Shown here in pieces: positions 2,121-62,499 of a DNA stretch of 64,000 nucleotides; within the stretch, counting starts at the first letter, position 1, and every line of letters starts with the position of its first letter. Source of the DNA: a virus; IMG/VR virus record IMGVR_UViG_3300027573_000023, positions 31,325 through 95,324 of that record, one strand, 5' to 3'. A program made the position numbers and the translations under genes. The notes under the pieces were generated by a model. The model saw only the letters and a program-made list of their open reading frames with translations, did no database searches and was not told the DNA's origin.

Positions 2121-2141
2121 GTAATTTAAAACCAACTACAT

Positions 2142-3158: not shown

Positions 3159-3176
3159 CCCTAAAACAATTTTATT

Positions 3177-3377: not shown

Positions 3378-3382
3378 TCATC

Positions 3383-6143: not shown

Positions 6144-6144
6144 T

Positions 6145-6152
6145 TAACTTTG
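6145..6152 (+). promoter_or_regulatory. Bacteroidota-type -7 promoter box (TAACTTTG)
   Basis: Matches TAnnTTTG, intergenic, 30 nt before the ATG at 6182. Confidence 0.5.
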
Positions 6153-6181
6153 TTAATTAAAAACCTTTAAAACCAACAACT

Positions 6182-6499
6182 ATGGCAACGTATGATCCAA
6201 ACAAGACGTACACATGGAGTCCTGAAACAAAGTTTCTGATCTCTGGGCAAGACTTTAGTCTTATGTTACACGCTGTTAGAGGGATTCTCTCTACAAAAGA
6301 AGCGACCAACACAATTTTGTGTTATGAATTGAATAAAAAAATTGAGGCAATGCTAAGCGATGCTGTGACTGAAGGAAAGGTAATAGAAACCCCTCCTATG
6401 GAAGCAATGCAAGGTGGTGTTGAACCACAAGAGGTAACAGAAGCAACAGATTTAAAGTTACCAAAAGAAAAATTTAGAAAACCCACTGTGGTAAAGTAA
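6182..6499 (+). CDS. Hypothetical protein
   Basis: 105-aa ORF following a promoter-like box. Confidence 0.7.
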   Translation: MATYDPNKTYTWSPETKFLISGQDFSLMLHAVRGILSTKEATNTILCYELNKKIEAMLSDAVTEGKVIETPPMEAMQGGVEPQEVTEATDLKLPKEKFRKPTVVK

Positions 6500-10520: not shown

Positions 10521-10521
10521 A

Positions 10522-10812
10522 TTACCATATGTGTGCTATGTCATCAATACTTATTAGAATGACATCTTTATCCTCTGATAAAGGAATCTTCATTACTCTG
10601 CTAACTGAACCAGGGTCAATCATAACCTCATCTCCCTCGCTCAGTTCATCAGTTACACCACTACCTACAGCATAGACTACTAGTCTGCCATATTTTCTCA
10701 TCCTTTCTTTCTCTTTGAAAGCTTTAGTCTCTTCATCCAGGATGATAGAACTGTTTTCTTCCTCAGGGAGCTCGAGATATACTCTACGCCCCAGCAGTTT
10801 CTTGAACTCCAT
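10522..10812 (-). CDS. groES: GroES-like co-chaperonin
   Basis: KLLGRRVYL...SSIIL...VYAVGSGV...LSEGDEVM...LISIDDI. Confidence 0.7.
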   Translation of the reverse strand: MEFKKLLGRRVYLELPEEENSSIILDEETKAFKEKERMRKYGRLVVYAVGSGVTDELSEGDEVMIDPGSVSRVMKIPLSEDKDVILISIDDIAHIW

Positions 10813-11164
10813 CTTTTACAGGTATTGAATTATGTGCTACTAATGGTTCATCTACTGAAGCGCATCTATAGAAACGCTCTCCATCTTCCTTAGACAGGTA
10901 GATTTCTGATTGATACGTATCTCTCTTACGTGTTACTCCAGATACCTTATTGTTTCTGGGGTTAATGTTAGGAGTTTCCTGTGTTCTCTCGTGTATGTCA
11001 TTCAACAACACTAATACTGAGCCATCAGCCATCTCAACGCTTCTGATTACAGCATTTAAATTGAAACTATCTCTCTTGTATGAGTAGATAGGTTCTTCAT
11101 TTGGTCGAGAGGGAGCCCCATTGGCTACAACCTCACGTCTCGTGTAGAAAAATTGTGTTCTCAT
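10784..11164 (-). CDS. Hypothetical protein
   Basis: 126-aa ORF in operon. Confidence 0.65.
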   Translation of the reverse strand: MRTQFFYTRREVVANGAPSRPNEEPIYSYKRDSFNLNAVIRSVEMADGSVLVLLNDIHERTQETPNINPRNNKVSGVTRKRDTYQSEIYLSKEDGERFYRCASVDEPLVAHNSIPVKDGVQETAGA

Positions 11165-11175
11165 TGGTTTTTGTT

Positions 11176-11400
11176 TTAAGCTTTTATAAAATCTAAGTAA
11201 TATTCTTGTCCAACTTCAAAATGGTCTTCTCTGATAGTTGACATTTCAATAACTCCTCCTGGAGTTGCAGCAAAGAATTCTTTATTTTCTTCACTACCAT
11301 TTGTTACAACATTGAATTTTGCTGAATATAGTATAGGATGTCCTCCCCAACCAACTCTTTTAGCTACTTCTATACATTGGAATTTTGCTCTTGTACTCAT
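11176..11400 (-). CDS. Small phage hypothetical protein
   Basis: RAKFQC...SEENKEFFAATPGG...FEVGQEYYLDF, a pattern recalled from other phage proteins. Confidence 0.7.
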   Translation of the reverse strand: MSTRAKFQCIEVAKRVGWGGHPILYSAKFNVVTNGSEENKEFFAATPGGVIEMSTIREDHFEVGQEYYLDFIKA

Positions 11401-11418
11401 TTTTAAATAATTTAATTG

Positions 11419-12093
11419 TTAATATTCTAGTTTATAAATACTTGTTATTTTTTTACCAGCTCTATTACTTTTTAGCCTTGTAATAGTTGGTAAAGACAAA
11501 GGAGAAATTGTAGATAGTTCCATTAAAGAATTGCTCTCCCAAGATTCATTAGTTAACAAATTAACTAACTTACATTTAATTCTAATTGGAGATATTTTTC
11601 CTAGATTTATCTGTCTTAATTTCTCTTTTGTTACTTCTGATAATACTTTACCAGTATGTGCCTCACTTAATCTTTTTTTAAAAGCTTCTGAACGTTTTTT
11701 CCCTGTTGTTGCTAGAATTCTTTTCTCAATAGTTTCTTTAGAATGTTTTCTACCTAATTGAGAGTTTCTCATTTTAGTTCTAGTTTCTTCTGAAAAATTA
11801 ATTCCACTAAGACCATCTCCCCCTAGAGTACAGTTTAAACCTTTAGTATAACTATTATTTTCTTTTATATGGTATTTTTCTAATATATCTAAGTTATCAT
11901 CAAAAACAAGGATTGTTTCTATTGTTTCAAATACATGATTTTGCCAACCATACTTTAATAAAGAGGCATATAATCTTGTCTGATTTTTACAGTTTAAGTA
12001 TTTATATTTACTCATTCTTGTTTCCAGATCAATTGTCTTCCCAATATAAACTTTACCACTTGGGTTTGTTATTTTATAGATATATCCTACCAT
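11419..12093 (-). CDS. GIY-YIG homing endonuclease with NUMOD3-like repeats
   Basis: GYIYKITNPSGKVYIGKT; SEETRTKM and HSKETIEK repeats; start placed at MVGY (12093). Confidence 0.9.
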   Translation of the reverse strand: MVGYIYKITNPSGKVYIGKTIDLETRMSKYKYLNCKNQTRLYASLLKYGWQNHVFETIETILVFDDNLDILEKYHIKENNSYTKGLNCTLGGDGLSGINFSEETRTKMRNSQLGRKHSKETIEKRILATTGKKRSEAFKKRLSEAHTGKVLSEVTKEKLRQINLGKISPIRIKCKLVNLLTNESWESNSLMELSTISPLSLPTITRLKSNRAGKKITSIYKLEY

Positions 12094-12097
12094 AATA

Positions 12098-12745
12098 TTA
12101 ATTATACTCCAGATCCAGAATTTTTCCAACGAGATCACTTCTGTGATTCTCTTTAAGTTTAATCCACTCTATACCATCTAGCTTTTTACTTAGCTCAATA
12201 GCATAGCTAAGCCCATTATAAGACTCTTTGATATCTTTTTGTTCGTTATCACCATTGATGATAATCTTACCTGTCTTACCAAGTCTTGTTAAAAGGGACA
12301 ACATCTCATGTTTAGTGAGGTTTTGTGCTTCTTCTATAACAAGAACATCATTGATAGTTTTCCCCCTAACAAATTGTACTGGAAAGGCTTTGATCTGTTG
12401 TGTCTTAATGTAGTCCAAGATTCTAGTCTTGTCATAACACATCATCAAATTTTCTTGGAAGGCTTCCAAGTATGGATCGAATTTTTCTTTAAGGTCTCCA
12501 GGTAGGAAACCTAAGGAATTACCAACTTCAACTGCAGCCCTTGTCACATAGACAAGTTCACATTGTTTGGTCATCAAGAACTCAAGTGCAGTATTAGCAC
12601 ATACTAATGATTTACCTGAACCTGCTCTCCCTGTGACTACAACAACCTGATTATCGATTATCAGTTGCTTCGCTTCTTTCTGTTCCTCATTAAGAGTAAC
12701 ATTAAAATGAATATCATTTTTTCTGGTTCTGTTTGCATCTTTCAT
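12098..12745 (-). CDS. phoH: PhoH-family ATPase
   Basis: GRAGSGKS, LGFLPG, FVRGKT, EEAQN, GDNEQ, NHRS. Confidence 0.93.
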   Translation of the reverse strand: MKDANRTRKNDIHFNVTLNEEQKEAKQLIIDNQVVVVTGRAGSGKSLVCANTALEFLMTKQCELVYVTRAAVEVGNSLGFLPGDLKEKFDPYLEAFQENLMMCYDKTRILDYIKTQQIKAFPVQFVRGKTINDVLVIEEAQNLTKHEMLSLLTRLGKTGKIIINGDNEQKDIKESYNGLSYAIELSKKLDGIEWIKLKENHRSDLVGKILDLEYN

Positions 12746-37090: not shown

Positions 37091-37699
37091 TTAGAACTGC
37101 CAGCCTACTCTGAATACAGGGCTGATGCTGTGTCCTAATTCAAGGCGTGTAACATTATCACCCCAATCAGGATTAGTGTTTGTTAGAGCTGCTCCCCATC
37201 CTAATTCTGCACCAAGGTACACTTTAGGGATGATATAATAGTCAGCTCCTGTAAACACACTGGCACCAAGACCAAACTTTTTATTCTGCCCTTCATAATC
37301 ATCATTGCTGGTTACATAACCAGCGTTGGCCTCATAGCCCCAGTACGTTGATAAACGTTCAGCTCCTGCTCTGTGGTGTTCTACACCAACTAAAACACCA
37401 ATAGCGAACTCTGTATCAACACCTGACACACCTGAATCCAACATTGAAAGATGGGCACCCCATCTACATGCTTTCTTCTCTGAATGGAATTGTCTTATCC
37501 TTACCCCTACTGTTCCCAGATTACTGTTAACATCAGAGAGGGTAAAAATACCACCTCCTGATAAATCAGGCGTCAAATTGGCCTCAAAAATGGTTGTGCC
37601 TTTAATAGGCTTCGTGAACGTTCCAGCATCAGTACTGATCTGAGCACTAACTGTAGTTAATGCAATTAGTGCAAGAGCACTTAAAATAATTTTTTTCAT
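37091..37699 (-). CDS. Outer-membrane beta-barrel protein (Bacteroidota type)
   Basis: Sec signal peptide ending VSA|Q, alternating beta strands, C-terminal BAM signal FRVGWQF. Confidence 0.85.
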   Translation of the reverse strand: MKKIILSALALIALTTVSAQISTDAGTFTKPIKGTTIFEANLTPDLSGGGIFTLSDVNSNLGTVGVRIRQFHSEKKACRWGAHLSMLDSGVSGVDTEFAIGVLVGVEHHRAGAERLSTYWGYEANAGYVTSNDDYEGQNKKFGLGASVFTGADYYIIPKVYLGAELGWGAALTNTNPDWGDNVTRLELGHSISPVFRVGWQF

Positions 37700-37862: not shown

Positions 37863-38351
37863 TCACTCTCCCTTGTTCGATGCAGGGTCTGACATCTCAC
37901 TTGGAATTTCTTCAAATGGAACAGTATCTGTACCATCACTTTTTTCTTTATAGCCATAGTGTTTAGCTATCATATCCAATACTGCTAAACCAAAATCATC
38001 CATTGGAGTAGCCATAATAGGATACATTTCTTTATAGAAAGTATCATCATCAAACCACATCCATGTTTTGAAATGAATTATGCTTCTTGCTGCTCGTGCA
38101 CCATCTTGTGCTATCGCTTGCTTATAAGCATAAGGCAAGTAATCAAGAATTTGTGCTTTAACATCCAATTGTCCCCACTTCTCATCCTCAGGACATGTTC
38201 CATCTTCTACTGACTTAACATAGTCAGGTGTTAGAAAAGGTTTAGCATTTTCAAAAGTCATTAGACTTATCAAGTCTAACTTTTGTACTCCCAAATCGTC
38301 TTCAGATTCTGTATCATGGAATCTGGCAATAATCTCCTCTTGTGTTCTCAT
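37863..38351 (-). CDS. Hypothetical protein
   Basis: 162-aa ORF. Confidence 0.7.
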   Translation of the reverse strand: MRTQEEIIARFHDTESEDDLGVQKLDLISLMTFENAKPFLTPDYVKSVEDGTCPEDEKWGQLDVKAQILDYLPYAYKQAIAQDGARAARSIIHFKTWMWFDDDTFYKEMYPIMATPMDDFGLAVLDMIAKHYGYKEKSDGTDTVPFEEIPSEMSDPASNKGE

Positions 38352-38982: not shown

Positions 38983-40548
38983 TTATTCTGCAATAGTGTC
39001 CTTTCCACTAGTGGAATAGGTGTAAATTTGGTCATGACCAGTAACTTCCACTTGTTTACCACCAGTAGCAATGCATAAATCTTTGAGTTCATCACTCATT
39101 TGCATTAAACTGATGGCATTCACTTTATATGGAAATTCATCATAACCAACTTCATCTTGACCATCATTAATGATTAAGATTTCTGGTAGCTCCTTAGACA
39201 GATCAACATCAAGATTGTGTAATTTTCCACTCTTAATACTTGCTGCAACGTGCTCTACAACTCTGCCAATGTTTGTAAAGCTACCTGAAGGATAATTGGA
39301 ATGTTGAGTCCAAAATCTCTCAACATCCTTAGCATCTTTAACATGGATGAATTTAAGACTACTTGTATTAGAAACAAAGAAACTGAAGAACACTTCAGCC
39401 TCTCCTCTTATAACATACTTAAATCTATCCATTAATAAAGCATTTACCCAAATCTGCTTATCTGTTTCATTCATACTACCTGATTGGTCACATAAGATAA
39501 TAATCTTTTGTTTCTTTTCACTGGTCTGAACTGGTACATTGATAAGCAAATCTTTGGTAAGGAACTTTCTTCTGAACGTAGGAAGCATTCTCTGCACAGT
39601 GTCAATCATTCTTAATTGATCATAACTACGCATGATTTTCTTTCTATGTATATCAGAATTAGCAACTTCTTGCTCTCCAATACCCTTCTCAACTTTAAAT
39701 TGAGACCCTAAATCACCAATGATAGATATTTTATCTAAGATTGCTAATTTGTGGTCCTTATTAAATCTACACATATCAACTTGAGTATTTAAATCTGGAT
39801 CAGCATAATCACATCTCCTGAACTCAATTCTTCTTGATTTCTCTCTACCAGACTTCTTCTGTCTGTTGTTATAAGAGTCAACATCCCTAACCTTATGATT
39901 GAAAGCAATTGCTTGCTCTAAAGGAGTGAATCCTGGTATGAAAGTTTCATATACGTTTTCAAACATAGCTACTTTCTTATCCCATTCTTCTGTACCTCCA
40001 CCATAATCATTTCTATCCTTGAATTTCTCTGCAATATAGTCCTTGTCATCAATCATTTTGAAATAACAAACCCTTGCAAGCTCCTTAATCCTTTTGATGT
40101 CCTCAGAGGCCCAATAATTAGTTTTAGCAGCAATCTGTTCCTTAGTGGGAGTTAGATAGTTTTCAGGCTCCTTAACAAACAGATTATCATTACTGTCATC
40201 ATCAGCATAAACATATGATGTATAGCTCCAATTAGACCATCTGGTAGACTCCCAAGCATAAGCTGGTTTCTTTTGAACAACACTAAGTGTTTCTCCATAA
40301 TAGTCTTCCTCATCAGCATCCCAACCATATCTCTTGTTTCTTCTCTCCTTCTTTCTCTCACTTTTAGTTTTTCTGTAATCAGAATACAATGTACCCTGAT
40401 CCAGATTACCTCTATTAAGAGTAGTTTTCTCAGATTCATATCTCCAAGTGTTGGGACCTGTCTGTACAGCAACAACACCTCTACTTACAGGTGCTGTTAT
40501 TGCCCTTGGTGAAAACCAAGGGTTACGTTTAGGTTGCCAGCCAGCCAT
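38983..40548 (-). CDS. vWA (MIDAS) domain protein, ViaA-like partner of the MoxR ATPase
   Basis: IILCDQSGSM, SFTN, IINDGQD. Confidence 0.85.
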   Translation of the reverse strand: MAGWQPKRNPWFSPRAITAPVSRGVVAVQTGPNTWRYESEKTTLNRGNLDQGTLYSDYRKTKSERKKERRNKRYGWDADEEDYYGETLSVVQKKPAYAWESTRWSNWSYTSYVYADDDSNDNLFVKEPENYLTPTKEQIAAKTNYWASEDIKRIKELARVCYFKMIDDKDYIAEKFKDRNDYGGGTEEWDKKVAMFENVYETFIPGFTPLEQAIAFNHKVRDVDSYNNRQKKSGREKSRRIEFRRCDYADPDLNTQVDMCRFNKDHKLAILDKISIIGDLGSQFKVEKGIGEQEVANSDIHRKKIMRSYDQLRMIDTVQRMLPTFRRKFLTKDLLINVPVQTSEKKQKIIILCDQSGSMNETDKQIWVNALLMDRFKYVIRGEAEVFFSFFVSNTSSLKFIHVKDAKDVERFWTQHSNYPSGSFTNIGRVVEHVAASIKSGKLHNLDVDLSKELPEILIINDGQDEVGYDEFPYKVNAISLMQMSDELKDLCIATGGKQVEVTGHDQIYTYSTSGKDTIAE

Positions 40549-41783
40549 TAGTGAAGACTTTTACCTTTGTTAAGTTTTCTCTTCTCAATACTTTTCAACA
40601 CATCAGCTACGTTGGCATCAATCTCAACCTGAGCTGTTTGTCGAGCTGGTTCTGGTGTTCCTCTTTGGTCATAGCCATAACGAGACTTTCTTCTAGGAGC
40701 TTCTTTTTCTTTAGCATACTCAGCATCAATCTCTTCTATTACTTCGCCATTGTCAGCTTTATTAATAGATTCCATAGAATAACGATATCTGCCAGCCATA
40801 TGTTGAATTTCTTCGTTAGTTTTCTTAGTAATAGCAGCATGAACCTGAATTAGGTCATCATTTACAACCATACTTCTAACTTCACTAAATTTATTAGTCA
40901 ATATATTATAATCACTAACAAATACTCTCTTCTCTTCAACAGTTTTGTTAGGATTACCTTTTAAAGTATTAACAAGATCCTCTATCTCTGCACCAATTTG
41001 CTTAAACTTAACAGTAGCCTCAAATTTCTTCAAAGCATCTTTGATTATGCCAGGTTTTCTAGCAAATTCTGCAATGTATAACAATGCATCTGGACCACAT
41101 TCCTCATAGATTTCATAACAATCAAGAGCAATCCTTGGACTAATGATAATACCACTTTTACAATACTCTTGTAATAGGAATGGTATGATTGGATCAACAG
41201 CACCTTCACCAAATCTTCTCTCTAATAATGTATTATAGGAAGCTTCATTGTAGTTATCCCATATTACATTATTCTCAAGAGGAAATCTTTCCATTAATGC
41301 TTTTAAACTAGCGTTTTTAGAAAACTCATCTCTTGTCTTATTAGTACACCCAACAATGAACCTTGTCTTAATTGGAAATACTTGAGTACCATTTCTGAAT
41401 ACGCCTGAGGATAATATATCCTTTAATTGTTCCAAGATGAAATCTGGAGCATCCATCAGCTCCTCGAAAATAACATACTCGTGATTCATAAACGAATTTT
41501 CAACTAAATATTCAATTTTTCCTGTCTCCAGGAGTGGAATGTCTAATCCCCCAAACAATCTGTCTGTGGTCATACCAGTACCCATAGTAATAATATATGG
41601 ATTAATACCTCTTTCATAGAAATACTCTAATGAGTACTCTGATTTACCATGGCCACCTGGACCATACAATACAATATTCTTTTCTGTCTTTAATCCAACT
41701 TCAAGAATACCAAATGTTTTATCCATAAAGACATATTTGTCCAATAAGGATTCTCTAACTTCTTCTTTGTCTGACTGTGTCAT
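40548..41783 (-). CDS. MoxR/RavA-like AAA+ ATPase
   Basis: GPGGHGKS, LFG, IFEEL, CTN, ALMERF; start placed at MTQS (41783), downstream of a hairpin at 41826-41872. Confidence 0.85.
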   Translation of the reverse strand: MTQSDKEEVRESLLDKYVFMDKTFGILEVGLKTEKNIVLYGPGGHGKSEYSLEYFYERGINPYIITMGTGMTTDRLFGGLDIPLLETGKIEYLVENSFMNHEYVIFEELMDAPDFILEQLKDILSSGVFRNGTQVFPIKTRFIVGCTNKTRDEFSKNASLKALMERFPLENNVIWDNYNEASYNTLLERRFGEGAVDPIIPFLLQEYCKSGIIISPRIALDCYEIYEECGPDALLYIAEFARKPGIIKDALKKFEATVKFKQIGAEIEDLVNTLKGNPNKTVEEKRVFVSDYNILTNKFSEVRSMVVNDDLIQVHAAITKKTNEEIQHMAGRYRYSMESINKADNGEVIEEIDAEYAKEKEAPRRKSRYGYDQRGTPEPARQTAQVEIDANVADVLKSIEKRKLNKGKSLH

Positions 41784-41873
41784 CTTTCTAAATTTTGTTT
41801 TTAAATAAATCTGTGTTCCATATATAAAAATGTGGGGGTTTGTGCTCATACAAATTTTCCCCCACATTTTTTG

Positions 41874-42503
41874 TTATTTTCTTCTTCTCAGAAGAGGTCT
41901 TCTTTTTATCCAATATCCAGCAGGACTTGCTCCTAGCTTATCATATTGACTACTCACTTGTTTCAACTTTCTTTCTTCAACAGAAGGAATAGGAGGAATA
42001 GCATATTCTGGTGCTGGTTGATGGTGTCTTGGTATCAACTTAAAATCATTATAAGCTGCTCTGATATCTGTACTTACTATTTCTAATAAACTACACTGAT
42101 CTTCAAGATCACCAAGATATAGAGTTCCATAATGATTGAAACTATCTTCATCTTCAACTTCCAAATCATCAAGAGTTACACACATAGGTGTGGTTTCTTC
42201 TATATCACCATGATCAGAGGCTTCTCTAATAGTATAGATATATACTTCACTAGAACCATTTTCTTCTAAGAAGTTATCAACTATTTTATATAGACCCTTA
42301 TTGGCAGATATAAGACCATCATTTTCAGGATCGAATGTGGCATCTGGTACAATTACCAGAGATTCACATTCTCGTGGTGCTGTTCCCATACCACATTCAA
42401 TTATGAATATACCAGGAATACGACCAAGGTGGGACTTAACATACTCAACGTCAGTCCCACTAGCCAAGGAACTCTTGGCTAGATAGACTTTCTTATTGGA
42501 CAT
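41874..42503 (-). CDS. Hypothetical protein
   Basis: 209-aa ORF. Confidence 0.65.
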   Translation of the reverse strand: MSNKKVYLAKSSLASGTDVEYVKSHLGRIPGIFIIECGMGTAPRECESLVIVPDATFDPENDGLISANKGLYKIVDNFLEENGSSEVYIYTIREASDHGDIEETTPMCVTLDDLEVEDEDSFNHYGTLYLGDLEDQCSLLEIVSTDIRAAYNDFKLIPRHHQPAPEYAIPPIPSVEERKLKQVSSQYDKLGASPAGYWIKRRPLLRRRK

Positions 42504-42505
42504 GA

Positions 42506-42874
42506 CTATGCCTCAGTTGTTTCAGGAGCAATTGAGAAATACTCAAGGGCAATTCCTTCAGCCACAGAGATTTCATCCTCTAACAATTCCAAATCCATTG
42601 TTAAAGAGCACATTTGTTCAACCCAATGAGTTGGATTGAAATTTTTGTCACCAGGACGTAAGCTGTCTCTTGTTTCAACAGATAAATCTGTTAAGTTCAA
42701 GATTGCTTCTTCAATGGTGTCTTTTCTTCTGCGTAATGTACGCAATTTATCTTCCATAGCAGATTTACTTGCTTTGAAGATTAATTTAGCTCTTGTATCA
42801 AGAACTTCTTGTCCTGAAGATGCTAATATTCCTTGAAATTTTGGTGCTCCTTGAGCTGCTGTTCCATTTGACAT
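42506..42874 (-). CDS. Coiled-coil hypothetical protein
   Basis: 122 aa; possible distant paralogue of 34369..34665. Confidence 0.7.
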   Translation of the reverse strand: MSNGTAAQGAPKFQGILASSGQEVLDTRAKLIFKASKSAMEDKLRTLRRRKDTIEEAILNLTDLSVETRDSLRPGDKNFNPTHWVEQMCSLTMDLELLEDEISVAEGIALEYFSIAPETTEA

Positions 42875-43020
42875 GTTTTCTAGTTTTTAGAATTTTTAAA
42901 TAAAAGTAAATTGTTTATCGAGCATTAATAGGGTTTAAGCAGATTTGGCGTTGCTTTAAGGACTTCTAATTTGCATGATCGAGTTGTTTATAATTGATTA
43001 ATATTTGAACCTTGTATATA

Positions 43021-43050
43021 AAAAAAGTCCCTTATTTCTAAGGGACTTTT
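43021..43050 (-). terminator. Intrinsic terminator after the T9SS-cargo gene
   Basis: AAAAGTCCCTTA-loop-TAAGGGACTTTT. Confidence 0.85.
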
Positions 43051-43066
43051 CTTACTATAAAACTTC

Positions 43067-45445
43067 TTATTCTTTGATTATGCGCAGAGTTCTTTGCTCT
43101 GTTGCCTGATTAAGAATGATGTTATACATTCCTGTAGAATAATCTCTTCCAAACAAAGGAGAGTTAAATTCATCAGGCGTAATTGTTCTGGTCTCAACAG
43201 AACGTCCTAGAACATCATAGATGCTCATATTAATAGGATTGATAAGATTAGTACTTCTTACTGAGAAAGTGCTTCCAAATGGATTAGGATACACTGTGAA
43301 TGTAGACGAAGGCGCTACATTCCCTGTAGCATTAACCCCCTTTTGTGAACTTCTTATTGAAGTACAAGTAGATTGTGTTGTATTAGGTGATTTCACAACA
43401 TCACAATGTCTTCCAGCACCATTTTCATTGTTGTATCTGTCTAATAAAGAACCAGCTGCACCACATGTACCATTAGCAAAAGCTGCATTAACTAAAGCTT
43501 GTAAATCAGCTATAGTTGCAACTGAATAATCTAAAGTACCATCACAGATGTTTAGCAATGCTGCTACAGATTGTCTAGCTAAGTTGTTACAATCACCACC
43601 ACCTAAATTCAATGCTTGAAGCAATGTTAAACCAGCAGGAAGTGTTGAACCAGTGAATACAGAATTATATGGTGTACAAGTTGTATAACAATCCCAAGCT
43701 AATGTATGGTTTTTCCAGTATCCTAAAGTACAACCATTAGGTTGTGCACAAGATAAAACAAGAACAGTTTGACTGCAAGAAGCTGATGTGTTATCACACT
43801 CATCTTCAGCTGTCCAAGATTGTGTATGAGATACACTTCCATCAGGGTTATTTACAACTACTAAAGCACCTGGAATTATATCAATATCTCCAGGAGCAGT
43901 ACAATTGTCTGTTGCTGTTGGAGTATCAAATACAACTGCTGCATCACAAGCAACCTCTTTATTAGGTAAACAATTGATAACTGGAGCAGTAGTATCTATT
44001 CTGTATGTAAATACCTGATCACAAGTATCAAATAGACCACACGAATTTTCAACTCTATAAGTACGAGTAAGCGTTAGTGCGCAATCAGTACCAGTAACTA
44101 CATCACTAGATGTATATGGTAAAGTAGGGCAATCTGAATCAACTGTAGGAGCTGTTGGATCAGGAATGGTTGGGTTACAACCCAATGCTCCACCTGGAGC
44201 ACATGTAATAACTGGAGGAACAGCAGCAAGAATTTGAATACGTCTTACAAAAGGAATATCTGAAATACATCTGTCTGCAATTCTACCACTAATAACAATA
44301 GGTCCTTCACATAAAGAAGTTATAACAACAGGATCAAATGTTAATTGTGCAAGACAACCACCAGTATAACCAAATTCTGTTTTGTAAGCAGCAATAATTC
44401 CTAAAAGAGTACCTTCATCCACAATATCACATGCTGCAACTTCTCTGTCAGCAGGTAAAGTAGGCTCAATTACAGGAGGAGGAGTAATTGTATATGTTGC
44501 AGTACAAGATTCCTCTTGTTCACATCTGTCTGTTACTACCCATCTTACTGTAATTGCTCCACCACATAAATCAGGAGCTTGAATTGGTGCTCCAGGAATA
44601 GTATTAACAATTATTGGAGGAAAACCACCTGAAGTAGTAAATGAATCTAACCAATTTTGAAAATGTGCATCAAGAGCAGTTTGATCTGCAAACTGACATG
44701 AAGGGTGTGATAAAGTAAGAGGACAGTTTGTGATAATTGGGTCTGGTGGTACAGGAGCACCATTAATTACAGGAGAAGTAGCAGTACATCCATCACAGTC
44801 TGTAATTCTGATTACATAATTCTGTGGAATTACGCCAGGAAAGCTACCTGTAGTATTTGTTGCTACTACTACTCCACCAGGAGAGGTAACTAAATTATAG
44901 GTGTATTGTCCACAACCACCAGGGAGACTAGGGAATTGAACAATTTGATCTGATGTTCCTAATTTAGTACCAGTTAATCCAGGAGTAATTGATACAGTAG
45001 TGAGATCATTAGGACAATCTACAGGAGTAGCACTACCTTGTATAACTAAAACTTTAGTAAATACTGAAGCAGCACATCCTGTACCTGCTGGATCACCTGG
45101 TAGAGACATTCTAACTTCAGTAGAACCAGATAAAGGTCCTAAAAGTACAGCTACGCTATTAAACAAACCAGAAGAAACAGTAGTAGTAGAAGTTAGGGAA
45201 TTGTTGTTAACAAATCTAGCACCACCAGTACTATCTCCTGTAATAGTCCAAGTTAAGGTTGTACCATTATCTAAAAGAACACTTGCTGTAGTGTAGACAA
45301 TGAGGTTGCCAGGTCCAGCACAGACAAATCTAGGTTCAGCACTTGCATTACACTGTGCAGACAAATCATTCGTGCCCAATAACGTCACGACTAACAGAAA
45401 TAGTAGGGCCAATCTTTGGACACTACAACGTAGAATTTTTTTCAT
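43067..45445 (-). CDS. Secreted Cys-rich HYR/SprB-like repeat protein with type A T9SS sorting domain
   Basis: Signal peptide ending LSA|Q; repeats such as DTTAPVINC...PTATDNC; GCTLGYWKNH domain; C-terminal VYPNPF...IYDVLGR...GMY.I......RIIKE. Confidence 0.9.
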   Translation of the reverse strand: MKKILRCSVQRLALLFLLVVTLLGTNDLSAQCNASAEPRFVCAGPGNLIVYTTASVLLDNGTTLTWTITGDSTGGARFVNNNSLTSTTTVSSGLFNSVAVLLGPLSGSTEVRMSLPGDPAGTGCAASVFTKVLVIQGSATPVDCPNDLTTVSITPGLTGTKLGTSDQIVQFPSLPGGCGQYTYNLVTSPGGVVVATNTTGSFPGVIPQNYVIRITDCDGCTATSPVINGAPVPPDPIITNCPLTLSHPSCQFADQTALDAHFQNWLDSFTTSGGFPPIIVNTIPGAPIQAPDLCGGAITVRWVVTDRCEQEESCTATYTITPPPVIEPTLPADREVAACDIVDEGTLLGIIAAYKTEFGYTGGCLAQLTFDPVVITSLCEGPIVISGRIADRCISDIPFVRRIQILAAVPPVITCAPGGALGCNPTIPDPTAPTVDSDCPTLPYTSSDVVTGTDCALTLTRTYRVENSCGLFDTCDQVFTYRIDTTAPVINCLPNKEVACDAAVVFDTPTATDNCTAPGDIDIIPGALVVVNNPDGSVSHTQSWTAEDECDNTSASCSQTVLVLSCAQPNGCTLGYWKNHTLAWDCYTTCTPYNSVFTGSTLPAGLTLLQALNLGGGDCNNLARQSVAALLNICDGTLDYSVATIADLQALVNAAFANGTCGAAGSLLDRYNNENGAGRHCDVVKSPNTTQSTCTSIRSSQKGVNATGNVAPSSTFTVYPNPFGSTFSVRSTNLINPINMSIYDVLGRSVETRTITPDEFNSPLFGRDYSTGMYNIILNQATEQRTLRIIKE

Positions 45446-45470
45446 TTTTATAAAAATTTAAAAGTTTAGG

Positions 45471-45478
45471 CAAATGTA
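45471..45478 (-). promoter_or_regulatory. Bacteroidota -7 box (TACATTTG) for the T9SS-cargo gene
   Basis: Matches TAnnTTTG, 25 nt upstream of the ATG. Confidence 0.6.
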
Positions 45479-45770
45479 CTTAAAAATTTGTTAATGTGCA
45501 CATTACAATGAAATTTTAACAATGAAAAATCCTTACTTTTTGTGAGGATTCTCTTAGTTTCTACCTCTACCTTTAGTTCCTCTATTCTTCTCATTTCTAC
45601 ATGGAAATTGTCTTACATAGACAGGTGTAATATCCTATTAAACAGGAGATACATAGTGTTCCTTTTGTTAATGAAAACATAGTTAGTTCTAAAGGTAATA
45701 ATTTGGACATGAGTAAATGGAGAGCCTACCTCCAGTCCTTGGCATTCAATTCCAACAAAAAGTGTTGGAT

Positions 45771-46040
45771 TTACTTAATAGGATAAACATATCTTCTGAA
45801 ATAATTAGTATTAGTCCAGTGTTCTACCCCTTTTTTATTCATAATCTTCACACATCTAGGATGTGTATCTACAATTTTGACAGTATCTACTTCAAACCCA
45901 CCACATTCAGTATAACTACGTGTGAATACAAACTCATTCCCTATATATATAGGATCTCTATAAGTAGTAAGCTCCTTCTCTTTAGAAGGAGCACATGCTA
46001 ATACAGTGGCTATTAAGCCTAAAAAAATAAATTTTCCCAT
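45771..46040 (-). CDS. Putative lipoprotein
   Basis: MGKFIFLGLIATVLA|C lipobox. Confidence 0.55.
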   Translation of the reverse strand: MGKFIFLGLIATVLACAPSKEKELTTYRDPIYIGNEFVFTRSYTECGGFEVDTVKIVDTHPRCVKIMNKKGVEHWTNTNYFRRYVYPIK

Positions 46041-46321: not shown

Positions 46322-47113
46322 TTAGTTTAATAGATCTTTGTTCTCACCTTCAGCTTTAGATGCTGATTTTGGCATTCTTTTAGCCTTTTTAGACTCTTTC
46401 TCTACATTCTCAACAAATGCCTCAACATTGTTAATAATGTTCTCTTTAATGGTCTCTTCTCCATTTTTAGTAGCATCAAAAATATCAGCTGCTACTTTAG
46501 CTTTACGTGCTTTGATTACAGCCTGCTCAAATTTTTCAAAGCTATCATAGTCATTTGGATCAACACCAAATAGGCTACGTTTACCTTTCATTTCAACAAC
46601 CTGTACATCTACAGCACTATTAGGCATATTCTTAAGGGTGTCCTTAATGGTACGCATCAATACTTTGACATCCTCAGGCATATCATCAGGCATATTGTTT
46701 ATGTCAAGAGTTTGAAACCCTTTTTCAGAAGCAACATGACCAGTAAGTCTGTCCTCAACATCATTATCTCTTTTTCTTGGTTTAAGATTGGCACCATACA
46801 TTTCAGGATACAAATCATTCACTGCTTCATCAGTCATAGATTTAGTATCCATGTCCCCATTAAACATTACTTTGTATGCCTTAGTTACCTGGCCAACTTT
46901 AGATTCAAGCTTAGCCATTATACCCAGAATTCTGTCTGCTTTACATAGCATACATGGTTCTTTCTTTGTGTGACGCTTGTCACCTTGTATCATTACATTA
47001 CATAACTCTTTCTGAGCTATAATGTATTTAGCAATTGTAGCTCTTGCTACCTTCTCCATAGCTGCTTTAGCTACTGTTTCATTTTTTTGACTGTGTTTTT
47101 GAAATAAACTCAT
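46322..47113 (-). CDS. Hypothetical protein
   Basis: 263 aa, followed by a terminator-like hairpin at 46283-46315. Confidence 0.7.
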   Translation of the reverse strand: MSLFQKHSQKNETVAKAAMEKVARATIAKYIIAQKELCNVMIQGDKRHTKKEPCMLCKADRILGIMAKLESKVGQVTKAYKVMFNGDMDTKSMTDEAVNDLYPEMYGANLKPRKRDNDVEDRLTGHVASEKGFQTLDINNMPDDMPEDVKVLMRTIKDTLKNMPNSAVDVQVVEMKGKRSLFGVDPNDYDSFEKFEQAVIKARKAKVAADIFDATKNGEETIKENIINNVEAFVENVEKESKKAKRMPKSASKAEGENKDLLN

Positions 47114-48778: not shown

Positions 48779-49153
48779 TTAATAACTGTTATAAATCAGT
48801 TCATCAATATCCTCATCAGTTAATGGTATCTCCATTATATTAGGCACATTACTTTGTAATGATCTAATATGCTTAAATAATGGATGTTTAGTATTAATTC
48901 TTTTATAATTACTACCCATTATCATATGTACTTCTTTACCATCAGAGACTATATCGCCTACACATGTGCTGCGTACACCATATTCTCTGTAATCAGCATT
49001 GAAATCATTCTGCGCCTGATAAAAGCTACGCACTAGATTTTCAGCTCTTACTGAACCAATAAACTCATAGTCTTTATCAAGACTACAGTCTAAATTTAAT
49101 CTTCCATTCTTAGGATGGAAAATATTGTACTGTTTGATTGTTGTTATACTCAT
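48779..49153 (-). CDS. YodL-like domain protein
   Basis: RSTCVGDIV resembles the RSxSVGDVV signature. Confidence 0.5.
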   Translation of the reverse strand: MSITTIKQYNIFHPKNGRLNLDCSLDKDYEFIGSVRAENLVRSFYQAQNDFNADYREYGVRSTCVGDIVSDGKEVHMIMGSNYKRINTKHPLFKHIRSLQSNVPNIMEIPLTDEDIDELIYNSY

Positions 49154-49638
49154 CGTTTTTGTTGTTTGTTTATTCTTAATAGTTCTTCTTCGTATGCTTT
49201 GTGTGCCTCTTCTTCATCCTCAAAATAGCCTAAGTGCTTGCTTCCACCATCAACTGTTATTGTAGCATGCCAACACTCATCTCTAGTATACCAATGTACA
49301 CCAGTATAAACACTGGTATGTGGTATATGTTTTCTATCACAACTCTCTCTTTTAGTGACAATCAAAAGATTATCAGCACTATCTGAACGAGTATTATAAT
49401 CCTTGTATTTAACCACTAAATCACTACTAGGGTCATAACCTAAAAATAGCTGAGCTACTAATGATCTAATGGTATATGGTTTATAGTCACCCTTAATAGA
49501 AAGATTAATACATCTATATCCTTTAATGATAAATGTCTTTAATATTCTACCAGTTTTATGGTTCATAACCTTTCCTGTATTGGACACACTATAATTAGTA
49601 GTACCATATTTTATCCAAACTTCCATTAGTTCAAACAA
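49150..49638 (-). CDS. NUMOD4-HNH-AP2 endonuclease homologue with degenerate HNH
   Basis: YSVSNTGKV (NUMOD4); TSVYTGVHW...W.A.I...HLGYF..EEEAH.AY (AP2). Confidence 0.8.
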   Translation of the reverse strand: MFELMEVWIKYGTTNYSVSNTGKVMNHKTGRILKTFIIKGYRCINLSIKGDYKPYTIRSLVAQLFLGYDPSSDLVVKYKDYNTRSDSADNLLIVTKRESCDRKHIPHTSVYTGVHWYTRDECWHATITVDGGSKHLGYFEDEEEAHKAYEEELLRINKQQKR

Positions 49639-57567: not shown

Positions 57568-57871
57568 TAAGACATACATCAATACAGAGCTAGATTGGGC
57601 TGAAAGCCAGCTTTCCTCATGGAAAGCATATGTTGATGCTAATCCTCTGCATACTCTTGCAGACAGAATTGAATGGAAACCCACAGCTAAGGGAGGTGCG
57701 ATTCCTATGGTTATTGCTTCCATAGAAGCGCAGGGTAAATTTGTCCAGGAAACTATGAAAAACTATCTGGCCCTACTAGAAGTAGTGGATAAGCTGAGAG
57801 AAAAAGAGGGTGCTAAAAAAGAAGCTAGAGGACAAAGCACTGTTCCTCATAGAATGCAAACCCCAGAATAA
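57554..57871 (+). CDS. Pre-terminase protein, possibly terminase small subunit
   Basis: Helical, 105 aa, coupled to terL; assigned by position only. Confidence 0.45.
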   Translation: MALTNKTYINTELDWAESQLSSWKAYVDANPLHTLADRIEWKPTAKGGAIPMVIASIEAQGKFVQETMKNYLALLEVVDKLREKEGAKKEARGQSTVPHRMQTPE

Positions 57872-58758
57872 TGGAAATTAAATCTACAGAGTTCTTCAAG
57901 AACTTAAAGTCACTTCCCCCACCAGGAACCCAGGAATTTCAGGATCTTATCAAGTGGGAAGAAGAAAAAATTAAAGGTGGAGTCACTATAAATGGCGTGT
58001 ACATTTCTGGTTGGCTCTATTGGCATTTAAATCATTGGTGGATTAGAATTGATGATAAGGATGAGTATGGCAATGATGTCAGAATCACATCCCTGCCAGA
58101 ACTTCGTGATAATGAGTGGATTAGAGCTGAGACGCTTGAGGCCTGCAAAAGGAATAAAGAAGGTTATATGGAGGTGGGTGGAAGACAAGGTGGAAAGTCT
58201 GAAATGGAGGCTTCCTACTTTGGAATGAATGCAACATTATTTGAGAATACCCAAAACGTAATTATATGTGGAAACGACTATGACCTTTCACTACTGAAGG
58301 ATAAGGTAGACTTTGGGATGAAAAATCTCTGGAAAGGCATTGCGATACCACGTTTGGATAAAACCTGGCGCTCCAACCAAATACGTTTAGGATATAAAAA
58401 GCCTGATGGGGAGGATGCGATTTGGAGCTACATTGTTATTCGTAATGCTAAGGATGGTAATGTAACAGAAGTGGCAGCAGGTACCACAGCTAAGTCCTTA
58501 ATAATGGATGAGGTAGGGAAATATCCTTTCGCTGCCACGTTTAAAGCTGGGGAACCAGCAATTAAAGGGTCCAATGGATGGAGAGCTGTACCAATCTTAG
58601 TAGGAACAGGGGGATCATTTGACAGAGGACAAGATGCAGAAAATTTCTTTTATAATCCACGAGCTAATAACTTTCATGCGATACTGGATCCTGTTAGCAT
58701 AGGGAAACTGGTTTATTTCTTTCTGGTGTATATCGTCAGGATTGCAAGAAAGAAATGA
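57871..58758 (+). CDS. terL: Terminase large subunit, N-terminal ATPase part
   Basis: GGRQGGKS Walker A, IMDEVGK Walker B, GTGG. Confidence 0.9.
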   Translation: MEIKSTEFFKNLKSLPPPGTQEFQDLIKWEEEKIKGGVTINGVYISGWLYWHLNHWWIRIDDKDEYGNDVRITSLPELRDNEWIRAETLEACKRNKEGYMEVGGRQGGKSEMEASYFGMNATLFENTQNVIICGNDYDLSLLKDKVDFGMKNLWKGIAIPRLDKTWRSNQIRLGYKKPDGEDAIWSYIVIRNAKDGNVTEVAAGTTAKSLIMDEVGKYPFAATFKAGEPAIKGSNGWRAVPILVGTGGSFDRGQDAENFFYNPRANNFHAILDPVSIGKLVYFFLVYIVRIARKK

Positions 58759-59900
58759 GTTTAGGAGATTGGCTGACTATTAATAGGGGTATGACATTCC
58801 CCAAGAATGCAGACATTCGCAAGATTAAAATCAAGGCAGCAGATATTCCTAAAGCAACAGCTCTTATAGAAAAAGAGAGACTTGCAGCTAAACTAAATCC
58901 AGATAGAACCATTTATCTGAAACAGATAATGTACTATCCTCTGACAGTAGAGGAATGTTTCTTGAATTCAGGAGAGAACATCTTCGATATTGAAGGAGCT
59001 AAGAGACAGAAATCCAGATTACAGGAAGCTGAACACAGTGGTACTCCAGTAATACTTCATGATGATGGAGATGGAGTTAAGCATTCCTTCACAGACAAAC
59101 AACCAATCACTAACTTCCCAGCTAAAAAAGATGACAACAAAGACGCACCTATTATTATATATGAATTTCCTATCGAAGATCCTCCATATGGACTCTATGT
59201 TGCTGGAGTCGATCCATATAGACAAGGGAAAGCTGCGTATAGTAGTTCCCTTGGAGTCGTTTACATCTACAAAAGGATGCACTCCATTAGTGGAGAGAAA
59301 TACCAGGATATGTTTGTGGCAAGTTATTGTGCAAGACCTGACAGAAAGGAGGTCTGGGAAGACCAGGCCAGACTCCTGATTAAGTTCTATAATGCCAGAG
59401 CCCTGTGTGAAAACGATGAAATTTCTTTCATAGATTATATGATAGCCAAAGGTGACAGTCATTACTTGGAACGCCAGCCTATATGGCTTCAGGAAATTGT
59501 ACCTAACACTACAGTTAAAAGAGATTTTGGTATTCATAGGTCAGCTGAGAAAATTAGATTATTTTTGCATGGATGCTTGAAGAAATACACTGAAGAAGTA
59601 CTCATTAGGCCAATTACTGATGAGGATGGTACACAGCCTGAATTGAAAGGAATGACTAAAATATTTGATCCTCTCCTCCTAGATGAGATGATTGCATATG
59701 ATGACGAAGGAAACTTCGATAGAATAATAGCAGCTGAACTAGCTATAGCTCTCGCTATGAAACTCGATCCAATGATGGGAGCCATAGGTGGTGATGGAGA
59801 TGTGAGAATAAGGGCTATGTATGATAAGGACAAACCTAAAAAGAAATTATTCACTGTAACAAAGAACATGTTTACAGCTAACAATAAATTATTCAAGTAA
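58755..59900 (+). CDS. terL: Terminase large subunit, C-terminal nuclease part (frame open from 58698)
   Basis: YP....E.F, YVAGVDPY, CEND, NFDRI.A. Confidence 0.9.
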   Translation: MSLGDWLTINRGMTFPKNADIRKIKIKAADIPKATALIEKERLAAKLNPDRTIYLKQIMYYPLTVEECFLNSGENIFDIEGAKRQKSRLQEAEHSGTPVILHDDGDGVKHSFTDKQPITNFPAKKDDNKDAPIIIYEFPIEDPPYGLYVAGVDPYRQGKAAYSSSLGVVYIYKRMHSISGEKYQDMFVASYCARPDRKEVWEDQARLLIKFYNARALCENDEISFIDYMIAKGDSHYLERQPIWLQEIVPNTTVKRDFGIHRSAEKIRLFLHGCLKKYTEEVLIRPITDEDGTQPELKGMTKIFDPLLLDEMIAYDDEGNFDRIIAAELAIALAMKLDPMMGAIGGDGDVRIRAMYDKDKPKKKLFTVTKNMFTANNKLFK

Positions 59901-59901
59901 A

Positions 59902-62499
59902 ATGGCAATAATCAGATACACCAAGGATGCTACCATCAGGTATGCCTACCTTAATATATTCCCTGATCAGTTCAAAACTGAGAAGGAGAAACAAGATGAG
60001 AGTTGGATCAAGAATACCATGGACTATTTTGCCAACAAAGCTTATGCAGAATATGTTAAGAATCGAGATACATTCGTAGGAAACTATGATTTAATGAAAG
60101 GATTACTCAGAATGGAAGATTTCTACCAGGAACCTGACGTGAAAAGTTTCACAGATTTACTTGAAAGGGATATGGAGTTACCTAAATATGTAAAGAACTA
60201 TTCCATTGTAACCACTCCTATTAATGAACTGGCAGGAGAACTTACTAAAAGACCTGACACATATAGAATAAAAGCCTTCGATGATGACAGTAAGGCAGAA
60301 GAACTACAATACAAAACCCAAATACTAACAGACTACATAATGCAGGAGGCCAGAAAAGGCATTCTTGAAAAAGCTGCTATGGAAGGAATAGAAATTCCTG
60401 ATGAGCAATTGGAAGAAATGACAATGCAGCAAGTACAGGAAGAACTCACAGATTATACCTCCATGGCAGAGAAATGGGCCAATCATATCCTTACGTGCAC
60501 AAAAGCAGATTTCAACTTAAAAGAAAAATCAGAGGATGCATTTCGAGACCTTATGATTTCCAATAGACAGTATTATCACATCTATGAGGATAATAGCAAA
60601 GTGGGATATAACATAGAGGTATCAAATCCAAAGAATACATGGTGGCTTTCTACTCCAGATTTAAAATGGACCAGTGATCCCTCAGGGCGTGCTCATGGTG
60701 CATATGCTGCAGGCACAGTCCAGGTCATGGAGCTATCTGAAATCATAGAAAGTATCCCAGATATCACTAAGGAAGAAATTGATCACCTGCGCTCTTCTCT
60801 CCAGGACTATGGACTCATAAACGTAAGAGAATCCAATTTAGGTAATCCCAATGCTGTTGAAGGCCAGGATAGTATAATGTATGATACATATGATCCCCTC
60901 GTTCTTCAAACCAGAATGTTGATTGAATCAGAAATGAAAGAGAACAATGATGGGCTAAGAGACTTCTTAGGACTAACATCAAACGTCTCTTCTTTTGGTT
61001 ATAAATATGTAGTGGTAAGAGGATACTGGATTGGAAAGAAAAAAATTGGTAAGTTAATATATATGGATGAGATGGATCAGCCACAATCTATATTAGTTGA
61101 TGAGCATTATAAATCTGGTACGCATCCTGCTCAGATTTCTTTAGAATGGGGATGGATCAATGAATGGATGCAGGGAACTAAAGTAGGGCCAGACATCTAT
61201 TTTGTTAAACCTTTCAAACTTTTAAATTATTGTCCTATCATAGGATTGGTACATGAGATTAAAAATACAGAGTCAAGATCCTTAGTGGACATGATGAAAC
61301 CTTTCCAGGTTATATATAATGTATGTATGAACCAACTTTTTGAATTACTAAATAAAGAGGTAGGTAAAGTGCAACTGATGTCATTACGACATATTCCTAT
61401 TCCTAAGGATGGAGATGCACAGGATGCATTAGACATCTGGGAAATGGAAGCGAGAAACAGGGGAGTAGTATTCGTGGATGACAGTCCAGAAAATTTAAAG
61501 GCTCCATCAAGTTTCAATCAATTCACAGCATTAGATCTTACCAGAACACAGGAGATGCAGACCAGGTATAATCTGGCTGTACAGATTAAGAATGAATGCT
61601 GGGAATTAGTGGGAATGTCCAAACAGAGAATGGGTAACGTTACAGCCTCAGAGAGCGCCACAGGAACTAATACAGCAGTTCAACAATCTTATTCGCAGAC
61701 AGAACCTCTGTTCGTAGCACACGAATATACACTAGGTCATTTATATCAGGCCATCATAGATGCTTCTCAATATATAGAATGTTCTAAACCAGAAAGCACA
61801 CTTTCTTATGTTACAGGAGAAGGAGAAGCTGCATTCATACAAGTTAATGGTAATGATTTGAAATTCAGAGACCTTAAAGTGTTTGCTACCAATAGACCTG
61901 AGGATACTCAAATGTTTAATGAGATTCGCCTTTTAGCACAATCTATTATCCAAAATGGTGGTAGTGTGTATGATATTATAGAATTGTACTCTACTAAATC
62001 AATGAGAGCTATGAAGAAAACCTTCAAAGATCTTAGAGATAAACAAGATGCTATGCAACAACAGCAAATGGCTACTCAACAGCAACAAGTTGAACAACAA
62101 GGTCAAATTGCTCAGGCTCAAATGCAGCAGGCTGCTCAGATGAAACAAATGGAGATGGAAAATCAAAACCATCAAAATGAACTTGATCGTATCAACAAAA
62201 AAGAGATTGCACTTTTACAAGCGCTTGGCAGAAACCCAGAAGCCACAGCAGACACAGATAAATCTGGAGTTGCTGATGCATTGGAAATGACTAATTTGGA
62301 GGCTGAAGAAAGAAGAGCTAACAAAGATCATGAGATTCAGATGACTGATATTCAATCTAAAACCAGTCTTGGTTTAAGTAAACTTGATGTTGACAGAGAA
62401 AAGCTACAGGTTGACAGAGAAAACATGGCAAATGATTTGCAGATAGCAAAAATAAATGCCAAGAACAAACCAAGTGGTGGTAACAAACCTAAAAAATAA
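59902..62499 (+). CDS. Portal protein
   Basis: 865 aa directly after terL, with a Gln-rich coiled-coil C-terminus, as in crAss-like portals. Confidence 0.85.
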   Translation: MAIIRYTKDATIRYAYLNIFPDQFKTEKEKQDESWIKNTMDYFANKAYAEYVKNRDTFVGNYDLMKGLLRMEDFYQEPDVKSFTDLLERDMELPKYVKNYSIVTTPINELAGELTKRPDTYRIKAFDDDSKAEELQYKTQILTDYIMQEARKGILEKAAMEGIEIPDEQLEEMTMQQVQEELTDYTSMAEKWANHILTCTKADFNLKEKSEDAFRDLMISNRQYYHIYEDNSKVGYNIEVSNPKNTWWLSTPDLKWTSDPSGRAHGAYAAGTVQVMELSEIIESIPDITKEEIDHLRSSLQDYGLINVRESNLGNPNAVEGQDSIMYDTYDPLVLQTRMLIESEMKENNDGLRDFLGLTSNVSSFGYKYVVVRGYWIGKKKIGKLIYMDEMDQPQSILVDEHYKSGTHPAQISLEWGWINEWMQGTKVGPDIYFVKPFKLLNYCPIIGLVHEIKNTESRSLVDMMKPFQVIYNVCMNQLFELLNKEVGKVQLMSLRHIPIPKDGDAQDALDIWEMEARNRGVVFVDDSPENLKAPSSFNQFTALDLTRTQEMQTRYNLAVQIKNECWELVGMSKQRMGNVTASESATGTNTAVQQSYSQTEPLFVAHEYTLGHLYQAIIDASQYIECSKPESTLSYVTGEGEAAFIQVNGNDLKFRDLKVFATNRPEDTQMFNEIRLLAQSIIQNGGSVYDIIELYSTKSMRAMKKTFKDLRDKQDAMQQQQMATQQQQVEQQGQIAQAQMQQAAQMKQMEMENQNHQNELDRINKKEIALLQALGRNPEATADTDKSGVADALEMTNLEAEERRANKDHEIQMTDIQSKTSLGLSKLDVDREKLQVDRENMANDLQIAKINAKNKPSGGNKPKK

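Follow-up and report, generated by a model that had tools for sequence, protein, structure and literature searches.

Does a phage of Bacteroidota send a protein of its own through its host's type IX secretion system (T9SS), the system that builds the surface coat, adhesins and gliding machinery of these bacteria? The question is raised by a gene in IMG/VR virus record IMGVR_UViG_3300027573_000023. The record is 95,324 bp long, with a CheckV completeness estimate of 75%, and its bases 31325-95324 were analysed here (64,000 nucleotides, called the window; positions are those of the window unless a contig is named). The gene, here called the cargo gene, is an open reading frame (ORF P0001) at 43067..45445 on the minus strand, starting with ATG and encoding 792 amino acids. 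Its product combines a signal peptide for the Sec pathway, immunoglobulin-like (Ig-like) repeats, a cysteine-rich module with the motif GYWKNH and a type A C-terminal sorting domain (CTD) of the T9SS. The gene is rather likely a phage accessory ('moron-like') gene derived from a cell-surface repeat protein of the host, the product of which would be exported by the Sec and T9SS machineries of the host and would remodel the surface of the infected cell. What is shown below comprises the architecture and signals of the protein, the phage context of the gene, the mobility of its cassette and an ancestry within a cellular family.

The cargo gene is flanked on each side by phage genes. The minus-strand arm around it contains genes for RIIA, RIIB, a DNA polymerase, helicases, a primase, an exonuclease and a UvsX-like recombinase, and the cargo gene is located between the small early genes and the replication genes; terminase and portal genes are found at the plus-strand end of the window. 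A protein identical to P0001 is encoded on three contigs (JGI, Logan, ENA), the longest of which, 127 kb, agrees with the completeness estimate of the record. A preliminary description of the locus, made from the letters of the window, had placed the gene among phage genes as a self-contained unit and had reckoned with a chimeric assembly. The former was borne out, with phage genes on both sides and a mobile cassette, and the latter is largely ruled out by the three contigs together with the loci of related phages described below. The GC content of the cargo gene equals that of its flanks. In the interval 42001-46000 the GC skew is -0.03 to -0.05 and the AT skew reaches +0.07, with values of about -0.2 and -0.1 in the rest of the minus-strand arm; this shift is consistent with an unusual amino-acid composition or with a recent inversion of the cassette.

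Residues 1-30 (45356..45445, minus strand, as are all parts of the gene) form a predicted Sec signal peptide for signal peptidase I. Read by eye, its n-, h- and c-regions are MKKILRCSVQR, LALLFLLVVTLLG and TNDLSA, with cleavage between LSA and Q. The Gln at position +1 is kept in every homologue, at an A-Q or a G-Q junction, as in the Q-rule of Bacteroidota, in which Gln follows the signal peptidase I site (PMC5837995). An N-terminal beta-rich region occupies residues 31-230 (44756..45355), of which 31-130 are poorly modelled. It is followed by variable, domain-shuffled Ig-like repeats with paired cysteines at residues 231-565 (43751..44755), the helical, Cys-rich GYWKNH module at 566-685 (43391..43750), a disordered Ser/Thr-rich linker at 686-715 (43301..43390) and the CTD at 716-792 (43070..43300). 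AlphaFold predicted confident Ig-like domains for residues 131-565, a beta-rich structure of low confidence for 31-130, the helical module at about 582-674, the disordered Ser/Thr-rich linker at 675-714 and a beta-sandwich at 716-792. Cysteine accounts for 37 residues, or 4.7%, versus 0.89% across the whole phage proteome, and 36 of these are located in the mature part, which fits an oxidising extracytoplasmic destination. No enzyme or catalytic domain was found in P0001. The 792-residue ORF with Sec signal and GYWKNH motif (within residues 571-580) was found as the preliminary description had it.

The type A CTD that had been proposed was confirmed with the TIGR04183 hidden Markov model, which gave 35.9 bits (cut-off 23); PF18962 gave 30.1 bits (cut-off 27). 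The profile match covers residues 718-792 of 792, the extreme C-terminus. When the C-terminal model was used as query in fold searches of the PDB, the results were filled by CTD matches. The model superposes on 8glk_D (NucA of Flavobacterium johnsoniae, with SprA; Z 8.9, root-mean-square deviation 2.1 A, 75/75 residues), on 8glj_D (FspA, with SprA; Z 8.3, 31% identity), where the sequences align with the FspA CTD end to end, and also on the CTDs of RgpB, mirolase and PorZ; its predicted local confidence (pLDDT) is just about 66-86. Solved CTDs are seven-stranded Ig-like beta-sandwiches with a conserved Gly in the beta3-beta4 loop and a C-terminal motif (PMC11285876). Gly747 and a P-N-P motif are invariant, and the basic, hydrophobic C-terminal tail, which ends in RIIKE, is kept. 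In the model Gly747 belongs to the DVLGR segment, which separates strands three and four, and it is taken as the Gly of the beta3-beta4 loop from this model position, not from an alignment with RgpB. After the GYWKNH module the CTD is the most conserved part of the protein. All the sequence signals by which Sec export and T9SS targeting are predicted are present and conserved.

The repeats had been described as HYR/SprB-like, a label of which the HYR part held only partly, the repeats being HYR_4C-like, and the SprB part was not supported. In P0001 the repeats score below threshold for both HYR_4C (PF23237, 24.8 against 27 bits) and HYR (PF02494, 16.5 against 21.7 bits), and the close homologue P0021 scores above threshold for HYR_4C with 43.5 bits. 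A phmmer search of the whole library yielded 344 matches at E<=1e-30. Giant proteins among the best 150 of these align via many repeated stretches, and those with Pfam data (P0005, P0006, P0050 and P0074) carry HYR or HYR_4C in 4/4 cases. Neither an SprB repeat (PF13573) nor a type B CTD (TIGR04131) was detected in P0001 at E<=1. Feature matches to SprB clusters in a protein atlas were all <0.9 and are leads only.

A probable origin of the protein can be traced through the GYWKNH module, for which Pfam has no model. The segment GCTLGYWKNH, residues 571-580 of P0001, is invariant, and in the protein atlas surface proteins from several phyla end in the fold of the module (template modelling score, TM, about 0.74). 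A first scan of 185,579 species genomes with strict phage-type patterns found no relative; when the alignment was loosened, the module was detected at no fewer than 422 bacterial loci. These loci, together with a Flavobacterium protein of like layout, led to the rejection of a phage-only family. The best bacterial matches are all from Flavobacterium, followed by other Flavobacteriaceae, Hymenobacteraceae and Chitinophagaceae. Protein WP_417936734.1 of Flavobacterium sp. ZB4R12 contains HYR-like repeats, the module and a CTD, and is 37% identical to P0001 over 359 residues. Such a layout is common among cellular proteins of Flavobacterium. No close bacterial copy of the cargo protein was found, the best being about 33-37% identical. 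In Bacteroidota the module is always located 73-125 residues before the end of the reading frame, with a CTD confirmed in the four proteins scanned for it, and it follows stalks as varied as SprB repeats, SdrD_B, SpaA and HYR. For Planctomycetota, Gemmatimonadota, Chloroflexota and Actinomycetota, 17 of the 20 loci have their best-scoring copy of the module <=4 residues from the C-terminus; in three loci a tail of 15-78 residues follows, and in two second copies one of 51-59. GYWKNH may be a cell-proximal or anchoring module.

In a quick maximum-likelihood tree of the module (130 columns, midpoint root) the 14 phage sequences form one long-stemmed clade with an SH-aLRT support of 100. Its position inside Bacteroidota, next to Flavobacteriaceae and also among Hymenobacteraceae, is weakly supported. 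Named bacterial proteins match P0001 from about residue 123-182 onward, and proteins that match its first ~125 residues (match start at residue 1-38) are encoded exclusively on metagenome contigs of <=39 kb. Since the phage proteins form a single clade nested among Bacteroidota, and since the named bacterial proteins lack a match to the first ~125 residues, the simplest history would be that a surface protein of a host was captured once, long ago, and then diversified in the phages.

The cargo gene has signals of its own on either side. A Bacteroidota-type -7 promoter box, TAnnTTTG (TACATTTG), is located at 45471..45478 on the minus strand, 33 nt before the ATG. Such a box was found 30-35 nt before the ATG in five of ten homologous cassettes (those of the window, L002, L006, L012 and L013), within a recognisably similar leader. 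A single match is insignificant; a promoter role is supported because the position is kept across proteins that are just 37% identical. An intrinsic terminator with a 12-bp stem, a GAAA loop and a T-run (43020..43050, minus strand) begins 17 nt past the stop codon, and the 93-nt downstream stretch in which it is contained folds at -25.1 kcal/mol. A strong hairpin with T-run follows the stop codon in 8 of the 9 homologous cassettes with a readable 3' flank. The earlier claim of an own box and terminator gains from this positional conservation. A scan for consensus sigma-70 promoters and terminators found promoter-like sites no more numerous than in shuffled sequences and missed the actual terminator. 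Upstream of the promoter a weak hairpin at 45528..45550, with 9 pairs on the plus strand and one A.C mismatch and a TTTTCATT tail on the minus strand, might possibly be a weak terminator of the upstream small gene. That the cargo gene is a self-contained unit is supported, as judged from the sequences, by its occurrence in both orientations and at varied sites in related phages, where the box and the terminator are for the most part retained.

When viral and metagenome contigs were scanned with sequence patterns, about 14 distinct homologues were found on phage contigs from many samples (contigs and loci are numbered L001 onward). All homologue loci of >=12 kb carry homologues of other genes of the window phage, L003/L010 and L004 sharing one or two, and synteny with the window was observed for L001, L002, L006-L008, L013, L014 and L017-L019. 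In the window and in L002 the cargo gene is co-oriented with the replication arm and is located after the genes 46322-47113 and 45771-46040 or their homologues. In L006, the protein of which is 83% identical, the gene lies in the same region as in the window and is inverted; in L013 and L014 it is likewise opposed to its neighbours. In L001, L007 and L008 it has the homologue of 37863-38351 on one side and that of 37091-37699 on the other, two genes that are direct neighbours in the window. On L017, L018 and L019 (a 125.8-kb contig) two tandem paralogues adjoin homologues of the plus-strand window genes 2142-6499. Taken over the related phages, the gene occurs at three or more sites, in both orientations and in one or two copies, mostly in the replication arm. 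The paralogues of L019 are located at 1931-4489 and 4563-6443 of that contig; the upstream copy, of 852 amino acids, consists of signal peptide and repeats and lacks both the GYWKNH module and the CTD. In L004 the homologue is divided over two overlapping ORFs (10001-11674 and 11629-12615), a frameshift or a pseudogene.

Internally, too, the gene is a mosaic. DNA similarity to L006 begins 17 nt before the ATG and stops 16 nt before the stop codon. Compared with L001, identity is 93% over the first ~700 nt and 78% over the last ~690 nt, and differing sets of Ig-like repeats leave the part between these hardly alignable. Proteins encoded next to the gene share 30-82% identity between the two phages. 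Members of the phage clade are 37-83% identical to each other, and all full-length copies keep the signal peptide, the module and the CTD, split across two frames in L004. Such signals, kept across a deep phage clade, imply long retention under selection. By these comparisons the cargo gene is a mosaic, recombining gene in a variable island.

The phage itself is a candidate crAss-like phage, as suggested by its portal gene (59902-62499, plus strand). In tblastn searches of deposited phages the top bit score of the portal was obtained with Leptolyngbya phage Lbo-JY46 (253 bits, 79% of the query, 28% identity); crAss-like phages reached 192 bits at most, with 95% of the query covered at 21-26% identity. 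These crAss-like relatives are phages of Bacteroides, Flavobacterium, Cellulophaga and Azobacteroides, none above 28% identity. Three ORFs of 2463-4720 amino acids are candidates for the giant ORFs of virion RNA polymerase type expected of crAss-like phages. Among 50,697 GenBank phage records no match was found for 22 kb searched by megablast or for P0001 searched by tblastn. Leptolyngbya phage Lbo-JY46, which has a cyanobacterial host, is 125 kb long, similar to the ~125-127 kb contigs of the phage group of the window.

How could the cargo protein reach the cell surface? The infected cell would be a member of the Bacteroidota, probably of the Flavobacteriaceae or a relative; a host with a T9SS is suggested by a signal peptide that follows the Q-rule, by the TAnnTTTG box and by relatives of the protein in Flavobacteriaceae. 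Host RNA polymerase would transcribe the gene from its own TAnnTTTG promoter. Sec would export the product, signal peptidase I would cut before Gln31, and the protein, now in the periplasm, would fold and form up to 18 disulfides. The translocon of the host T9SS would then recognise the type A CTD, and after removal of the CTD the cargo protein would be fixed to the outer surface, or else it would be released. In the surface-fixed form the GYWKNH module would be proximal to the cell and the Ig-like rod distal. Infected cells would probably display this phage-made surface protein. From the features established above we infer the host, the timing of expression, the T9SS dependence and the biological role.

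Since the cargo protein lacks an enzyme domain, it most likely acts by binding. As a conjecture, its preferred role is masking of a receptor, exclusion of other phages, or adhesion to particles or cells. The effects named in the preliminary description, display of an adhesin, altered aggregation or motility and superinfection exclusion, are likewise conjectural. Phage T5 offers an analogy: its Llp lipoprotein, like other phage surface proteins, is sent to the host outer membrane and blocks the phage's own receptor. The analogy with the preferred role is functional, not one of homology, as Llp is exported by lipoprotein sorting and the role of the cargo is inferred. Remodelling of the surface is favoured because Flavobacterium phages rely on gliding and on surface structures linked to the T9SS (10.1101/2020.10.02.323337; PMC9804748), because of the early/replication position of the gene, and because its recombining, swept segments resemble an arms-race locus.

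Several points weigh against export and surface remodelling as proposed here. The data leave the candidate roles undistinguished. The phylogeny of the phage leaves a Bacteroidota host unfixed, as the top portal match is a cyanobacterial phage. The first 130 residues of the protein are poorly modelled. The TAnnTTTG box is missing from five of the ten homologous cassettes and is common by chance, 83 occurrences being expected in the window and 91 observed. Since a CTD can be specific to a species (PMC11285876), export would need a matching host, which would tie the cassette to particular hosts.

The same observations can be read in other ways. The preliminary description had also considered jamming of the T9SS. 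An abundant decoy would occupy or block the translocon or the PorV shuttle and put a stop to secretion and gliding, and with them to the display of receptors used by other phages; once exported, the product would be functionless. The conservation of the CTD, second to that of the GYWKNH module, could be read so, and as Flavobacterium evades phages via gliding and T9SS mutations (10.1101/2020.10.02.323337; PMC9804748), a shutdown of the T9SS could exclude competitors. A decoy, however, needs neither a disulfide-rich passenger of 690 residues, nor an N-terminal segment 93% identical in DNA between diverged phages, nor recombining repeats, and the cellular proteins of like layout are ordinary cargo. 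Nothing in the sequence favours jamming over ordinary secretion, and a decoy appears unlikely. Chance capture of a host gene of no use to the phage would agree with the cellular homologues of like architecture and with the variable island; such a neutral passenger is quite unlikely in view of a single deep phage clade, 37-83% identical, in which the full-length copies on ~14 contigs keep signal peptide, module and CTD.

Virion proteins present another case. Phage particles commonly contain proteins with Ig-like repeats, and such proteins are the best viral fold matches of the P0001 model: a Foldseek search against viral models returned generic Ig-like repeat proteins alone, at TM <=0.21. The cargo protein would then be a fibre or decoration protein with the CTD-like beta-sandwich as merely another Ig-like domain, and the paralogues of L017, L018 and L019, which adjoin homologues of plus-strand genes of the other arm, would be in place. 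A virion component would hardly account, however, for a cleavable signal peptide that follows the Q-rule, for 36 mature cysteines, for a CTD that scores above curated cut-offs and matches translocon-bound CTDs, or for an own promoter and terminator and a location in the replication arm in most relatives, and is considered very unlikely. An assembly chimera or contamination with host DNA might be suspected from the skew of the cargo gene, which differs from that of the flanks (-0.03 to -0.05 against about -0.2). This is extremely improbable, given the identical protein on three contigs from JGI, Logan and ENA, the homologues located between corresponding phage genes in many independent contigs, the GC content equal to that of the flanks, and a best bacterial copy only ~33-37% identical. 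The accessory gene with a T9SS-exported product is the reading retained here. An extended version of it, at present doubtful, would have a crAss-like lineage of ~125 kb that domesticated a host surface family into a phage-specific, T9SS-exported clade, carried in an insulated, freely recombining cassette, with an N-terminal tip sweeping between diverged phages. The gene would then be an arms-race determinant, for instance a receptor mask or a factor of superinfection exclusion shown on the infected cell by way of the host T9SS, and the first family-level conserved use of the T9SS by viruses.

The idea of a phage-encoded T9SS cargo is already known (PMC6949934, PMC7468147). Cryophage, a 76-kb Bacteroidetes phage from cryoconite described by Bellas et al. 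in 2020, has genes with T9SS CTDs in variable islands, which encode an endoglucanase, a GH39 protein and a PA14 protein and were explicitly proposed as phage-encoded T9SS cargo; the evidence is exclusively metagenomic (PMC7468147). The window has in common with Cryophage that a phage gene encodes a type A sorting domain and varies greatly from one phage variant to the next, and that use of the host T9SS is presumed. It is set apart from the published description by a cargo of Ig-like repeats plus GYWKNH that lacks an enzyme domain, and by a ~125-kb candidate crAss-like phage. In gut phage 'cluster 2', T9SS sorting-domain proteins encoded next to BACON-repeat genes were noted and left unexplained by de Jonge et al. 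in 2019 (PMC6949934). These are likewise phage contigs of Bacteroidetes encoding T9SS sorting-domain proteins (PMC6949934), but their genes are BACON-associated and located upstream of the head module, whereas the cargo is HYR-like with GYWKNH and located in the replication arm in the window and in most relatives. Proteins that conform to the Q-rule are encoded by Porphyromonas phages as well (PMC10367356). The cellular Flavobacterium proteins (WP_417936734.1, and that of F. buctense, L021) share with the cargo the HYR-like repeats, the GCTLGYWKNH module, the linker and the type A CTD; they are chromosomal, whereas the phage proteins form a separate clade, and no named cellular counterpart was found for residues ~31-125. 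With NucA, FspA and RemA of F. johnsoniae (8glk, 8glj, 8gl6) the cargo shares the fold and sequence pattern of the CTD; these proteins are host-encoded and their passenger domains are unrelated to that of the cargo.

New here are a predicted non-enzymatic cargo family conserved in a lineage of large, candidate crAss-like phages, evidence for an apparently insulated cassette that moves, inverts and recombines, the likely derivation from a cellular family of Flavobacteriaceae type, and the description of the GYWKNH module. If the proposal is true, a phage-made T9SS cargo amounts to a virus rewriting the surface of its host during infection, which could affect host range, superinfection, attachment to particles, and carbon turnover in soils and waters. 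The locus offers a compact, testable example: one gene with its own promoter and clear export tags, relatives in a tractable genus, and natural domain-swapped variants. The unnamed GYWKNH module merits a family description of its own.

Some further features of the window were observed. The large terminase subunit is encoded by two ORFs on the plus strand, 57871-58758 and 58755-59900, with a 4-nt overlap; in phrog_6681 they correspond to positions 86-358 (first ORF) and 412-727 (second ORF). The division could reflect a split gene, a frameshift or an error of sequencing. An HNH endonuclease gene (49150-49638, minus strand) is located among the small early genes. Searches of PHROGs and Pfam gave nothing for most of the immediate neighbours of the cargo gene. 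Directly downstream of it, genes for a MoxR-like AAA+ ATPase (PF20030, PF07728) and a weakly matched VWA/CoxE-like protein were found (38983-41867, minus strand, and 41874-42874). As L001, L006 and L007 do not contain this pair, it belongs to the variable island of the cargo gene.

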